In this document: positions 9,717-58,478 of the stretch, in pieces
Numbering within the stretch: the first letter of the stretch is position 1
How the letters are laid out: every line of letters starts with the position of its first letter
Assembly (NCBI GenBank): GCA_016184145.1
Contig: JACPDF010000023.1
Location: 1,229 to 65,228, forward strand
Source: Candidatus Woesearchaeota archaeon
Lineage (GTDB): Archaea > Nanobdellota > Nanobdellia > Woesearchaeales > GW2011-AR4
Length of the DNA stretch: 64,000 nt
Direction: 5' to 3'
The notes under the pieces: generated by a model
What the model saw: only the letters and a program-made list of their open reading frames with translations
Told to the model about the DNA's origin: nothing
Databases searched by the model: none
Program-made: the position numbers and the translations under genes

Positions 9717-10565
9717 ATGATTACCACTGATTTTCTCGACCAGCTGAACAGGTTCCATTTAGTGGTAAAGAAGAGGGTCACATCCAATTATGTGGGTCCC
9801 AGAAGGTCGATTGCGGCAGGAAGGGGCTTGACATTTAAAGAACACAGGCTGTATGCTCCAGGAGACGACATAAGGCTGATAGACTGGAGAGTATTTGCCA
9901 GGACTGATGACTTGCATGTAAAGACATTTGAGGAGGAAAGGAACCTTACAGTGCACCTTGTCATAGATGCAAGCGCCTCGATGGGATTTGGCAAGCCGAT
10001 AAGCAAGTTTGACTATGCCTCAATGATAGGAGTTGGCTTTGCTTACCTTTCCATGAGGGAAAATGAGAAATTCCAGTTCTCCACATTTAATGAAAAGCTG
10101 GACATATTTCAGTCAAGGAGAGGGATGTCCCAGCTTGCAAGCATGGTCTACCATCTCAACAACACAAAAACGCAAGGTACTTCAAAATTCATGGATGCAA
10201 TGCTGCAGTACAAGAAAGTCATCGGGACAAGGTCTCTGCTTGTCCTTGTGTCGGATTTTTTGGTTGACATTAATGAGATTATAGGCGGCCTTTACACTCT
10301 TGGAGACCATGAGATAAAGATAATACAGGTGCTTGACCCGATAGAAAAAGAGCTCAAATACCATGGCGACTTTAAGCTGATAGACAGCGAGACGCAAGGC
10401 AAGCTAAGGACTTTCATAAGCCCAAGATTAAGGGTAGAGTACCAGGAGATGCTGGACAGGCACGTCGCAAGATTAGAGGAAACGTGCAACGCCCTGGGAA
10501 TGCATTTCTACCAGATAACAACAGATACGCCGATATTTGACGCTTTCTATAGGGTTTTAGAATAG
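9717..10565 (+). CDS. DUF58-family protein (vWA-like), usual MoxR partner
   Basis: HLVIDASASMGFG motif; directly downstream of the MoxR gene. Confidence 0.75.
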   Translation: MITTDFLDQLNRFHLVVKKRVTSNYVGPRRSIAAGRGLTFKEHRLYAPGDDIRLIDWRVFARTDDLHVKTFEEERNLTVHLVIDASASMGFGKPISKFDYASMIGVGFAYLSMRENEKFQFSTFNEKLDIFQSRRGMSQLASMVYHLNNTKTQGTSKFMDAMLQYKKVIGTRSLLVLVSDFLVDINEIIGGLYTLGDHEIKIIQVLDPIEKELKYHGDFKLIDSETQGKLRTFISPRLRVEYQEMLDRHVARLEETCNALGMHFYQITTDTPIFDAFYRVLE

Positions 10566-10620
10566 AAAGCTACGAACGAGCGTAGCGAGTGAGTATGCTT
10601 TTTACAGGGTTTTGGAATGA
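10566..10620. repeat. mini-element (AAAGCTACGAAC...AGTGAGTATGCTTT) followed by a synonymous duplicate of the DUF58 gene's 3' end
   Basis: 10597-10620 re-encodes AFYRVLE* with 4 synonymous changes relative to 10542-10565; termini are shared with the 54519-54622 element. Confidence 0.55.
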
Positions 10621-31034: not shown

Positions 31035-31793
31035 CTAAGCCTCACTATCCAATTCCTTATCAATTTCTTTCTTAGAAGCAAGCATTATCTCTATCTCTCC
31101 AAAATGCTCCTGCTGGTGCAAATCCACTTTCCTCTGGGTTGTCAGATGAAGCAAAGGAACAAATGTATACACTTTGTCTTCTTTTGCCTGGGAAGGCGTT
31201 ATTTGGGAAAAAAGCACCTTGTTGCTGTTGTTCTTGTAAAAAAACGATTTTATCCTTCCATAGACATCCCTTATTACCTGCGTCATGTCTCTGGTTTTTT
31301 TGGGCGCTTCCAGGTTCATTGGAGGTATGGAATTTAAAACGCGCCTTCTTTTCACCTCCAGCGCTTTTTCCAGAGCCTCAACAAGATCATATATGGACAC
31401 TTTCCTCTTCCTTGGCTGGGGTGTCCTTGGTATTAAGGGGTATTTTTCCCCTTCCCTTCTTTCAGGCAAAATTTCGTCAAAATCAAGCTCATCAGCCATC
31501 TCTTCTGTTTCTGTGAGCAGCCTGTCAAACTCGGATAAATCTTCATGAAGCAGCCTGCTAGACTTTATTTTGAGCAATATTGCTGCTGCCAGCAGCACTT
31601 TCCCCGATACCCTGAAATCAAGCTCTTTTAATTGCTTTATCCTCTCTATGTACTTCTTTGTAAGCAAACTTACATTAATGTCCCATGGGTCCATCTGCTC
31701 TGTTTTGACAAGCTCATAAACCAGCCTCTGCCACGTAACCTCATCTTCATCATGTATTATCTTGAAGATTCGTTCGTGCGCTTCCATAAGCAA
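31035..31793 (-). CDS. scpA: segregation and condensation protein A
   Basis: VTWQRLVYELVKTEQMDPWDINVSLLTKKYIERIKQLKELDFRVSGKVLLAAAILLKIKS matches the ScpA N-terminus. Confidence 0.8.
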   Translation of the reverse strand: MLMEAHERIFKIIHDEDEVTWQRLVYELVKTEQMDPWDINVSLLTKKYIERIKQLKELDFRVSGKVLLAAAILLKIKSSRLLHEDLSEFDRLLTETEEMADELDFDEILPERREGEKYPLIPRTPQPRKRKVSIYDLVEALEKALEVKRRRVLNSIPPMNLEAPKKTRDMTQVIRDVYGRIKSFFYKNNSNKVLFSQITPSQAKEDKVYTFVPLLHLTTQRKVDLHQQEHFGEIEIMLASKKEIDKELDSEA

Positions 31794-31823
31794 TCTATCG
31801 TGATGCTGCTATTTAAATTTAAT

Positions 31824-32004
31824 GAATAATCAGGCTCTGTAGAAAATGTAGGTTAGCAGCCTTAAGGTCGAATTTAATTTAAATGTACATCAAGCTGACA
31901 AGGGGGATGTCCCTTACGGGGAATGTCAGCAATCAAAATACACATAAAAAATTCGAAGCTGCTAACCCGAGCGAAGCGAGATTTTCTACAGAGCCGAATA
32001 ATCA
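31824..32004. mobile_element. MITE-like element: 163-bp body (31833-31995) with perfect 15-bp TIRs and a 9-bp target-site duplication
   Basis: TIR ggctctgtagaaaat / attttctacagagcc; flanking direct repeat gaataatca at 31824-31832 and 31996-32004; nested inverted repeats inside. Confidence 0.65.
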
Positions 32005-32052
32005 GCAGACAGAAATTATTGCTTAATCAATTATAAATAATACCGTTTTTTA

Positions 32053-32727
32053 TTATTTCTTCTTAACCGCAAACATAGCATGATCCTTTTGGTATGGCTC
32101 TAAAGTCCTGTAGTCAACAATTGTAACCTCATTTTCCAATTGCTCCCTTACCTCATTGAAAATCTGCTTTGGCTTTCGGGTAACGTCAATGCTTCTTGCC
32201 TTTACAGCCAACAATGCATAGCCGTCTTTTTTCAGGAATGCGCTTATGTTTTTCAGGAATATATCCACCTGGTTTTTTTGCGCAATATCCTGGTAAATAA
32301 CATCAACAATGCTTATCCTTTCCATCAATTCATTAATGTGGTTTGCGCTTTCCAGGATCGGGGCTGTATTTTTCCTTGCTTCCAGGTTAAAAATCAAGTC
32401 GCGCATGACTCTTGGGGCCAAATCAACAGCAAATACAAAGCCATCCTTGCCGACAATATCAGAAACATGGCTTACTGTAGTGCCTGTAGAGCTTCCAAGG
32501 TACAAAACAAAATCATTTTTCCTGATGAAGATATTTTGGCACTTATTCGCTATTAAAGCTGCTAATTTGCTGCTGTAGGGGTCCCATTCCCGGTATTCAA
32601 TATTATTTTGCGTAACTAAGGGCTCTTCATAAACTTTTTTTCCGGGAGTTAAGTTTACTGTAAATAGCTTATTTCTCGCTTTATCCTCGTAAACCTCAAA
32701 TATTTTTGATTTTGATATCATTTTCAA
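32053..32727 (-). CDS. flpA: fibrillarin (rRNA 2'-O-methyltransferase)
   Basis: KIFEVYEDKARNKLFTVNL...VLYLGSSTGTTVSHVSDIV SAM-MTase motifs. Confidence 0.9.
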   Translation of the reverse strand: MKMISKSKIFEVYEDKARNKLFTVNLTPGKKVYEEPLVTQNNIEYREWDPYSSKLAALIANKCQNIFIRKNDFVLYLGSSTGTTVSHVSDIVGKDGFVFAVDLAPRVMRDLIFNLEARKNTAPILESANHINELMERISIVDVIYQDIAQKNQVDIFLKNISAFLKKDGYALLAVKARSIDVTRKPKQIFNEVREQLENEVTIVDYRTLEPYQKDHAMFAVKKK

Positions 32728-53525: not shown

Positions 53526-54356
53526 CTATTGCTCCATGATCTCATAGAATACATAAAGAACCCTGTCTATTCCCCTGACCAAGTCAAAGCCATTGCCTTC
53601 CACAATAATGCAGTTGCGGTCAAAAGAAACTTTGCTTTCATTCGCTTCCTTCACATATAAAACAAATTTATCTGTATTGTCGCATGTTATTATCGGCCTG
53701 TCCCTGCACGCAAAAGTCTCATTTCTGTCGCAGGCTGCTATAGGCTGCTTAAAGAATATATCTGCCATATGCCGTTCAAAGTCTGCAACTGCAAGAGCTA
53801 CACGCGAAAAATCCTTTCCAGTAGGGTCAAAAGTAACATAATAGTCGGTAGCGTTATTGAAAAGATTGAAATCCAAAGCACCGCTTATCTTAATATCCTC
53901 CACTTCCTTCGGCCCGTACCTGAATTGCACATTATACAATCTGGTCTTTTGTGGGCTTACAAGCTGAATATACCATAAATCCTCAAACTTTACGAAAGAA
54001 TAAACATCTTTGTACAAGTATCCCTGATCCGGCTTTAATTTTCCCTTGAAGTTGAGCTGATGCAGATCATCAATTGTCTTAGGCTGCTCCTGTGTAAAAA
54101 GCCTTATTCCGAATACAACAGCAAAAAGCAGCATCAATAAAACAGCGCCTATTATAAGAATTTTATCTGACTTGAATTTTGCCTCTTTAGGCTCTTCTTT
54201 TTCAGTCTGTGTTTTTTTCTCCGGTATTTCCTCTATTTCCTTTTTCTTTTTTTCATACTCTTCCCTGCTTATGACGCCTTCCTCAAAACTTTCCTCAAGC
54301 TTTTTTAATTTTATTTCTTTCATTGTCAAAAACCACCCATCATAGATGGGTGGCAT
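53526..54356 (-). CDS. membrane-anchored hypothetical protein (paralog of 54622-55284); the true start is probably the internal Met near 54323
   Basis: N-terminal charged SHOCT-like helix and TM; C-terminal region is homologous to the neighbouring gene (RPIITCDNTDKFVLYV.../APVITCSNSTNFVPVVY...). Confidence 0.45.
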   Translation of the reverse strand: MPPIYDGWFLTMKEIKLKKLEESFEEGVISREEYEKKKKEIEEIPEKKTQTEKEEPKEAKFKSDKILIIGAVLLMLLFAVVFGIRLFTQEQPKTIDDLHQLNFKGKLKPDQGYLYKDVYSFVKFEDLWYIQLVSPQKTRLYNVQFRYGPKEVEDIKISGALDFNLFNNATDYYVTFDPTGKDFSRVALAVADFERHMADIFFKQPIAACDRNETFACRDRPIITCDNTDKFVLYVKEANESKVSFDRNCIIVEGNGFDLVRGIDRVLYVFYEIMEQ

Positions 54357-54440
54357 GTAATAATTTTATTATGTATTATGGTGGTTTTTGACTAAGCGAA
54401 TTCCACCACTATTTATCCACCAATCATAGAATTGGTGGAA
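54325..54440. repeat. palindromic element family 2, copy X
   Basis: gtcaaaaaccacc ... ggtggtttttgac 13-bp inverted repeat; ccacccatc/gatgggtgg and ccaccaat/attggtgg palindromes; homologous to 58349-58478. Confidence 0.55.
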
Positions 54441-58324: not shown

Positions 58325-58348
58325 TGGCTTTTCCTGTACTAAAACAAC

Positions 58349-58478
58349 GGAATTCCACCATTGGTGGAATGAGTAGTGCTCAAAAACCACCATCATTGGT
58401 GGAATTCCGAGTATCAAAAACCATTGAATATGAAACTAATGAAAACATGCCACTGGTCTTTGACTGGTGGTTTTTGAC
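58349..58478. repeat. palindromic element family 2, copy Y
   Basis: ttccaccattggtggaa perfect palindrome; tcaaaaaccacca ... tggtggtttttga 13-bp inverted repeat; shares ggtggtttttgac and catgccac with copy X. Confidence 0.55.

Follow-up and report, generated by a model that had tools for sequence, protein, structure and literature searches.

How does a sequence that folds back on itself along its whole length come to stand against the upstream edge of a predicted archaeal promoter? The question is raised by a 163-bp element at positions 31833-31995 of a 64,000-nt stretch of contig JACPDF010000023.1 from a Candidatus Woesearchaeota archaeon (this whole stretch being the window in what follows), where it occupies the spacer between the genes for ScpA and fibrillarin. 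A sequence-only reading had taken it for a transposable element of the miniature inverted-repeat class (MITE) with perfect 15-bp terminal inverted repeats (TIRs) and a 9-bp target-site duplication (TSD), mobilised by a DDE transposase of the insertion sequence (IS) type encoded elsewhere. We propose, with high confidence, that the element was moved in trans by an IS5-type, IS903-like transposase and that the family to which it belongs targets the edge of promoters.

A dispersed MITE family and its partner insertion sequence

The ends of the element had been placed correctly to the base. The sequences at 31833-31847 (GGCTCTGTAGAAAAT, plus strand, the end towards the scpA promoter) and 31981-31995 (minus strand, reading ATTTTCTACAGAGCC on the plus strand) are exact reverse complements over 15 of 15 bp and enclose the 163-bp element, and the 9-mer GAATAATCA stands flush against both of them, at 31824-31832 and 31996-32004. 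The next base after GAATAATCA, a G, also matches on both sides, which makes a 10-bp TSD possible; the 9-bp reading is preferred, as it fits both the symmetry of the TIRs and the rest of the family. This TIR pair is the sole inverted repeat in the 64-kb window that is perfect over 15 bp or more within 200 bp, against a chance expectation of 0.05 on average in 60 first-order Markov simulations, and by simple arithmetic the flush 9-bp direct repeat contributes a further factor of roughly 4^-9. Only one open reading frame (ORF), of 47 aa, crosses the element and continues beyond it through the TIR, leaving the element without a transposase gene, and conserved coding in the body is excluded because copies differ by indels of 1-2 nt.

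We then searched a set of genomes, with one representative of each prokaryotic species, for the 12-bp ends of the element at matching spacing. These termini, equally spaced, are present in at least 118 public genome stretches, and from the matches listed, to which the counts of copies, ends and hosts given below also refer, at least 122 copies at different loci were extracted. Where both 9-bp flanks could be read (119 copies), the TSD is perfect in 58, has one mismatch in 16 and two mismatches in 8, every TSD being specific to its locus and differing in sequence between loci; Methanolobus-type subfamilies have an 8-bp duplication rather than one of 9 bp. By their records the main hosts are metagenome-assembled genomes (MAGs) of Woesearchaeota and Nanoarchaeia, followed by other DPANN archaea (Aenigmarchaeota, Micrarchaeota and Diapherotrites), by Methanosarcinales including a complete Methanolobus genome, and by a few Planctomycetes and other bacteria. 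About 22 copies were tallied in the assembly SMAG_U8137, and several other assemblies have 3-5 each. The window copy falls in the largest subfamily, of 53 members and 161-168 bp, whose profile it matches end to end at 130 bits. No copy was found in the viral contigs scanned, and a metagenome scan with a copy-specific 24-mer found no near-identical sister copies, its sole match being a truncated relative with diverged ends (L119).

Furthermore, complete ISs of 891-901 bp share the MITE termini GGCTCTGTAGAAA. One of 900 bp, with ends GGCTCTGTAGAAAGTCT and a single ORF, lies at 245-1144 of contig L006, which also holds a MITE 37 bp away; others are the 901-bp copy at 3275-4175 of L126, with the perfect 9-bp duplication AAATATTTC, an 898-bp copy in L144 with the perfect 9-bp duplication TATAAAAAC, and 891-bp copies in L152 and L153 with the perfect 9-bp duplications CATTATTAT and ATTGGTAAA. 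Their ORF codes for a DDE_Tnp_1 transposase of ~270 aa (PF01609 at 3e-17), for which the best NCBIfam model, NF033579 ('IS5 family transposase'), scores 128-133 bits and is ahead by about 90 bits. D101, D174 and E226 and the Y(2)R(3)E(6)K signature (Y219, R222, K233) are invariant in 60 of 60 homologues. The transposase has 434 homologues at E <= 1e-10; most are ~270 aa long and come from contigs of roughly 1 kb, which would be expected where repeats break assemblies, and on the longer contigs that bear the IS the neighbours are archaeal, a Hef-type helicase-nuclease for instance. The stop codon of the transposase lies, in most IS copies, within the right end (CTACTAAGCC, its TAA being the stop). 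The partner IS thus appears to be a distant, IS903-like member of the IS5 family, below the curated threshold for membership. Both the further copies, with their different 9-bp duplications, and an IS with matching ends, DDE_Tnp_1 transposase and 9-bp duplications of its own, which the sequence-only reading had suggested looking for, were found, and where it had suggested an IS-type DDE transposase encoded elsewhere, an IS903-like enzyme of the IS5 family can now be named.

These observations suggest a mechanism in which the ~270-aa DDE transposase encoded by the ~900-bp IS with GGCTCTGTAGAAA ends would move the non-coding MITE in trans. It would bind both inverted ends, excise or copy the element and insert it into target DNA through cuts staggered by 9 bp, whose repair would leave the duplication GAATAATCA. 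The ends, the duplication and the partner IS are observed, and the DDE chemistry would follow from the family of the enzyme. We also considered the reading that the window sequence is non-mobile, a vertically inherited non-coding RNA gene or regulatory palindrome beside which the 9-mer recurs fortuitously. Its very stable fold and its single copy in the window would suit such a reading, which is scarcely credible in view of at least 122 copies at unrelated loci with 9-bp duplications of their own, full ISs with the same ends, orthologous scpA promoters in relatives that lack the element, and no match in Rfam.

A few observations on individual copies may be added. The right end of the L006 IS is 'MITE-like' (CTACAGAGCC), and its ORF, lacking a stop within the element, continues into the neighbouring MITE. 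In the IS leader (3295-3360 of L126; 185-245 of L125), 85 nt separate the left end from the ATG of the transposase and form two GC-rich hairpins, the second of which covers the start codon (GGTGGAAGGCTAGTTCCACC-ATG); it is likely to guard against translation from read-through transcripts. Four bacterial copies (L045, L051, L097 and L115, on 0.8-1.5 Mb contigs of a Bythopirellula MAG) have only termini of 12-14 bp in common, and their 9-bp TSDs resemble one another (TCCCTGACA, GTTCTGAGC and TTTATGACC) and have similar flanks, which may point to another, sequence-specific target or to a further repeat that served as the insertion site.

Placement at the edge of predicted promoters

In the window the ATG of scpA (minus strand, 31035-31787; start at 31787) lies exactly 45 nt from the end of the MITE at 31833. 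The left TSD copy covers -45 to -37 relative to this ATG and is adjoined by a candidate scpA promoter (minus strand, 31810-31823) that can be read as a BRE-like (B recognition element) ATTAAA at 31818-31823 and a TATA box, TTTAAATA, at 31810-31817; the scpA transcript is probably leaderless. To place this single case in the family we surveyed 246 element ends for an ATG, counted if it opens an ORF of at least 60 aa. An ATG stands 43-47 nt from the element in 52 of the 246, and in 32 of these the distance is exactly 45 nt. Reading outward from the TIR, the layout is a 9-bp duplication, R-N-A-A, TTTAWATA at -30 to -23 and the ATG, with an A at -33 in 31 of the 32 sites. A scan that makes no use of ORFs gave a comparable picture: with 0.48 expected per offset, 67 ends have the start of a loose BRE/TATA pattern at offset 9, 20 have it at offset 8 and 24 at offset 10. 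The pattern is present on at least one side of 77 of 123 elements. Broken down by record label, it is found at 64 of 87 DPANN loci, 9 of 13 loci of MAGs labelled 'uncultured Methanosarcinales', 3 of 14 of Methanolobus and similar, and 1 of 8 with bacterial labels; the 1.3-kb contig L006 is labelled 'Bacteroidetes' and looks archaeal by its promoter motif.

The full-length IS copies are placed likewise, with an ATG at 45 nt in L153, L151 and L006, at 44 and 46 nt on the two sides of L125, at 47 nt in L120 and at 49 nt in L124. By motif and spacing this layout reads as an archaeal BRE/TATA promoter at the distance typical of leaderless mRNAs. Among the 54 genes called in the window, 22 have a BRE/TATA-like motif at -38 to -35 and 16 a TATA box at -31/-30, and since the window's own genes show the same motif positions, the motif beside the family is the normal promoter architecture of the organism; the positions also imply that a large share of its genes would be transcribed as leaderless mRNAs. 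The motif and spacing at scpA match 67 other element ends, these genes and the unoccupied scpA promoters of orthologous loci.

What could produce such a placement? The simplest possibility is that the MITE inserts anywhere and that only those insertions survive which spare genes and promoters in compact genomes. All 53 members of the window subfamily among the matches listed are intergenic, DPANN genomes are gene-dense, and any insertion inside the BRE edge would destroy the promoter, so that survival alone would give a sharp lower bound. The distribution is, however, a spike, with 31 ATGs at offset 45 and 1-3 at most of the offsets from 48 to 120. Beyond the far side of promoter-abutting copies, moreover, spare non-coding DNA extends for a median of 70 nt, and 72% of sites have 20 nt or more of it; in the window itself 48 nt are spare between the fibrillarin stop and the target. 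Were insertion uniform over the free spacer, the log10 likelihood of landing within 1 nt of the edge would be about -78. The combination of a spike with spare DNA on the far side disfavours a pure selection filter, which we regard as improbable.

In place of such a filter we consider it most likely that the transposition complex recognises the promoter. In 40 reconstructed empty sites sequence information is confined to the promoter side, with a C at the last duplicated base followed by R-N-A-A and the TATA element, and the far flank has none; either end of the MITE can face the promoter. Together these two properties argue that the complex recognises a one-sided determinant, the core promoter. 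In the mechanism proposed above, the 9-bp target would then lie directly upstream of the BRE/TATA, leaving the promoter intact and the ATG of the leaderless gene ~45 nt from the element end, and the complex would recognise the promoter on one side of its target either as BRE/TATA sequence or in the bent form bound by the TATA-binding protein (TBP) and transcription factor B (TFB). We give comparable weight to direct DNA recognition and to docking guided by factors, and much less to selection by itself. In its specific form the second idea, that the pre-initiation complex guides the transposase, which docks on TFB/TBP at the BRE/TATA or on the bend they induce and cuts 9 bp upstream, is a tentative possibility. 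If it is true, a 'safe-harbour' insertion rule would let hundreds of copies build up in tiny DPANN genomes, and the conserved MITE hairpin might modulate the adjacent promoter.

Structure and origin of the hairpin

The whole element folds as a single hairpin, at -62.7 kcal/mol on the plus strand (z = -7.0) and -70.1 kcal/mol on the minus strand (z = -8.3), and none of 200 shuffled sequences reached the stability of the native one. Inside the TIR stem lies a second tier, helix 2, whose plus-strand arms are GGTTAGCAGC at 31851-31860 and GCTGCTAACC at 31958-31967; all 6 of its 6 pairs examined show compensatory changes in the family. The centre is formed by a conserved plus-strand module at 31894-31930 with three parts, namely a GCTGACA/TGTCAGC helix (31894-31900 with 31924-31930, read from the window sequence and its folding), a purine bulge, AAGGGGGATG, at 31900-31909, and an apical CCC-loop-GGG hairpin at 31910-31922. 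This second tier and the central stem, joined in one long hairpin, had been recognised in the sequence-only reading. It had also noted a 13-nt block on one arm, CGAGCGAAGCGAG (plus strand, 31968-31980, just inside the right TIR), as an extra that resembles GC patches elsewhere in the window. The block is present and one-armed, and within it a mini-hairpin GC-GAA-GC is formed at 31971-31977 (plus strand), both pairs of which covary. It is no recurrent patch of the window, which holds just one look-alike, with one mismatch, at 10577, and it is no private insertion of this copy, because the mini-hairpin is conserved and covaries across the family.

The look-alike, CGAGCGTAGCGAG (window 10533-10620), lies between direct repeats of ~21 bp, GCTTTCTATAGGGTTTTAGAAT and GCTTTTTACAGGGTTTTGGAAT, at the 3' end of an ORF at 9717-10565. 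A profile search of the window for a second copy of the MITE gave only a non-significant match there (10576-10607, E = 8.7), and the look-alike may be what is left of a decayed element end, or else a small duplication of unrelated origin.

Covariation was assessed with RNAalifold on 24 non-redundant members of the subfamily. Five helices were recovered: the TIR stem, helix 2, helix 3, the apical CCC/GGG hairpin and the 2-bp mini-hairpin, the pairs of which are GC or AT in 15:7 sequences and CG or TA in 19:4. Paired cells amount to 96.7%, compared with 86.8% when partners are shuffled; 18 of 33 pairs have changed on both sides, compared with a shuffled mean of 10.1; and the covariation score is 0.311, compared with 0.123 for shuffled and 0.02-0.06 for slid partners. 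One-sided changes of the G-U type account for 7 cells, set against 79 double changes and 26 mismatches or unpaired cells, and the orientation of the element relative to flanking co-directional genes is unbiased (12 versus 10). Because G-U changes are rare and orientation is unbiased, no preferred strand is apparent, and the pattern suggests, without being decisive, selection on Watson-Crick complementarity with no preferred transcribed strand. The hairpin is kept by compensatory substitutions, presumably for a benefit to the propagation or tolerance of the element.

The body has a history partly separate from its ends. The derivation of the MITE from the IS by internal deletion was rejected, as MITE and IS copies are alike at their termini only; the exception is a Nitrososphaerales copy (L042), which keeps 3' coding sequence of the transposase. 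The central module of stem, purine bulge (RGGGGKW) and CCC-loop-GGG hairpin recurs in several other subfamilies and also in copies with other termini, GGGTGTGTCCCAAAT in L144 and GGGTTGCGTTCAAAAT in L119. The L144 body (1250-1410, termini GGGTGTGTCCCAAAT / CCAGTTTGTCCCAAAT) scores 65 bits against the subfamily profile and the L119 body (1405-1484, terminus GGGTTGCGTTCAAAAT) 25 bits; in L144 a full IS of the GGCTCTGTAG type is inserted directly against the end of the divergent-terminus element. This recurrence suggests that the structured body persists while the termini co-evolve with different transposases.

Could the hairpin have been retained because it serves the host? As a terminator or insulator between fibrillarin and scpA, a binding site or a structured RNA, it would owe its conservation to a role other than mobility. 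Compensatory change does reach the mini-hairpin and the apical hairpin, outside the TIRs; the central module recurs across subfamilies and with different termini; the body is unrelated to the interior of the IS; and on the minus strand a T6 run lies within the window hairpin, oligo-T being an archaeal terminator signal. This T-run, however, is in a variable arm and is not conserved, the orientation is unbiased, either end can face the promoter, and one-sided G-U changes are not enriched, giving no sign of a strand-specific RNA. No Rfam match was obtained, and a benefit to the element is the simpler reason for conservation across hundreds of selfish copies in many genomes. Co-option by the host is accordingly an unlikely explanation.

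A structured RNA gene was also sought directly and rejected. Nothing in the 64-kb window reached a gathering score in Rfam; at E <= 10 a search of both strands of the locus gave nothing on the element and only a chance lncRNA match outside it; MITE copies from 11 other loci had no match; and ARAGORN found no tRNA gene in the window. Readings of the central module as a K-turn, a hammerhead or another ribozyme were dropped by eye, the defining motifs being absent and Rfam giving no match. One copy in a Nanoarchaeia MAG (L093) has, at 914-983 and ~65 nt from the MITE, a weak C/D-box-like match to SNORD50 (30 bits, E = 0.017, below the gathering score).

The scpA-fibrillarin neighbourhood

Pfam matches agree with the sequence-only reading that the element lies between scpA and a fibrillarin gene, both on the minus strand. 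The scpA product matches SMC_ScpA (PF02616), and its 250-aa homologues cover the protein fully from the ATG at 31787; the fibrillarin gene (32053-32721) matches Fibrillarin (PF01269) and has homologues of 222 aa, whereas its exact product, taken with two choices of start, had no entry in the collections searched. By the homologues of both proteins the organism belongs to the Woesearchaeota. Nop5 comes next after these two, again on the minus strand. From the fibrillarin stop it is 57 nt to the right end of the MITE and 48 nt to the outer edge of the right TSD.

We compared this region with related contigs (L131-L143), in none of which a copy of the MITE was found. The scpA promoters of three of them (L131-L133, 87% nucleotide identity) are unoccupied, which answers one half of the comparison with empty sites that the sequence-only reading had proposed; the other half failed, as the two flanks do not combine to a single empty site. 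Synteny is lost precisely at the MITE-bearing spacer (window 31787-32053 against L131-L143): the relatives whose fibrillarin is 91% identical carry pdxS downstream of that gene, and those whose ScpA is 92-93% identical carry other genes upstream of scpA. A rearrangement mediated by the MITE at this junction was considered and is countered by the intact 9/9 duplication, which indicates that the insertion is later than the joining of fibrillarin to scpA.

Other small repeats are present in these genomes. The spacers of the closest relatives (L137 3690-3800; L131 230-330) hold a different short palindromic repeat, for example ATGAAAATCCAAAGGATTTTCAGGACACAA, which is present in both the fibrillarin-side and the scpA-side relatives and may be another small repeat family of these Woesearchaeota. 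Further perfect inverted repeats of 13-14 bp within 200 bp lie in the window at 658-792, 54325-54393 and 58348-58478, the last with nested GGAATTCCACCATTGGTGGAAT-type palindromes at 58348-58410; none of them is related to the MITE termini.

Strength of the interpretation

Several points weigh against the account of a MITE moved in trans by an IS903-like transposase to the edge of promoters. As regards the enzyme, the transposase scores below the curated cut-off of NF033579 (128-133 versus 140 bits), and pairwise BLASTP found no significant similarity between it and the IS903 transposase. The partner transposase family was not found in the 64-kb window by tblastn and profile searches, which were aimed at this family only. 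Since no such transposase is in the window, the element, itself devoid of coding capacity, is non-autonomous, and the earlier statements that it is so and that no transposase is nearby hold in this sense. As regards the copy itself, it is the single MITE in the window, the host genome being represented by these 64 kb alone, and the nearest copies elsewhere among the matches listed are ~76% identical, so that there is no sign of recent activity here. As regards the site, the scpA and fibrillarin genes of the closest relatives are not adjacent and homology stops at the promoter edge and at the fibrillarin stop; with gene order differing in this way, a clean empty site was not recovered through the ScpA and fibrillarin orthologues. 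Finally, promoters throughout are predicted from sequence motifs and spacing, and the taxonomic labels of MAG contigs are taken as deposited.

Significance and comparison with known systems

On its own the window element is an ordinary MITE. Like prokaryotic MITEs in general, the family is small, non-coding, intergenic, hairpin-forming and multicopy, with TIRs and a duplication and with a body unrelated to the parent IS. A published catalogue of archaeal MITEs places a Woesearchaeota genome among the most MITE-dense, clusters elements at 95% identity and contains no target analysis (PMC11602168). The subset of open-access literature that we searched holds no description of this MITE family, of its termini or of promoter-edge placement by archaeal ISs or MITEs; this is not proof of novelty, and promoter-edge targeting by a MITE family appears to be unreported. 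Placement at a fixed base beside the archaeal core promoter would represent a form of target choice new to prokaryotic ISs, and it would account for the tolerance of high MITE loads by DPANN genomes, which are very small and dense in genes. For annotators, the spacer between scpA and fibrillarin is to be treated as mobile DNA with no RNA gene. The combination of 9 bp, BRE/TATA and an ATG at +45 could furthermore be used to find promoters and leaderless starts by computation in archaea that are uncultured.

Among characterised elements the likeness to IS903 is the closest that we examined. The ends of an annotated IS903 on a Klebsiella plasmid (GGCTTTGTTGAATAAATCG) share 11 of 14 positions with the MITE terminus, and the termini of IS903 and of the archaeal partner IS both begin GGCT-TGT-GAA-A. 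IS903 makes a 9-bp target duplication, and 9-bp duplications and ends starting with GG are features of its group; both are present in the archaeal IS and MITE. Each is a single-ORF IS of about 0.9-1.06 kb encoding a DDE_Tnp_1 transposase with the Y(2)R(3)E(6)K signature, and NF033579 is the best model for both enzymes, with 353 bits for that of IS903 against 128-133 for the archaeal one. The two differ in the length of the transposase (270 aa in the archaeal IS, 322 aa in the annotated coding sequence of IS903), in the DPANN hosts of the archaeal IS and in the position of its transposase stop within the right end. They differ also in target choice, IS903 having a weak symmetric preference whereas that of the archaeal family is one-sided and linked to promoters. 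E. coli IS5, which belongs to another subgroup, duplicates 4 bp at its short target and goes to a few hot spots associated with destabilised DNA, offers a partial parallel: it too is an IS5-family element that inserts upstream of specific promoters, such as those of glpFK and flhDC, but it is not known to follow a genome-wide core-promoter rule.

The outcome may also be compared with that of eukaryotic retrotransposons. Yeast Ty3 is targeted via TFIIIB, which comprises TBP and Brf1, a relative of TFB/TFIIB, and fission-yeast Tf1 inserts at RNA polymerase II promoters. As in the archaeal family, insertion would take place at a position fixed to nearly a single base relative to a TBP-dependent promoter and would leave the gene intact, the analogy being one of outcome only. 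Ty3 and Tf1 are long terminal repeat retrotransposons whose integrases are tethered by known protein contacts, whereas the archaeal enzyme is a small DDE transposase identified from its sequence, for which direct recognition of DNA is equally possible. If guidance by the pre-initiation complex is nonetheless true, it would be a counterpart, among prokaryotic DDE transposons, of the targeting of Ty3 by TFIIIB. An enzyme of 270 aa with 15-bp ends would be a tractable system in which to ask whether DNA bound by TBP and TFB directs transposition, a question that ties archaeal transcription to the promoter-targeting retrotransposons of eukaryotes.

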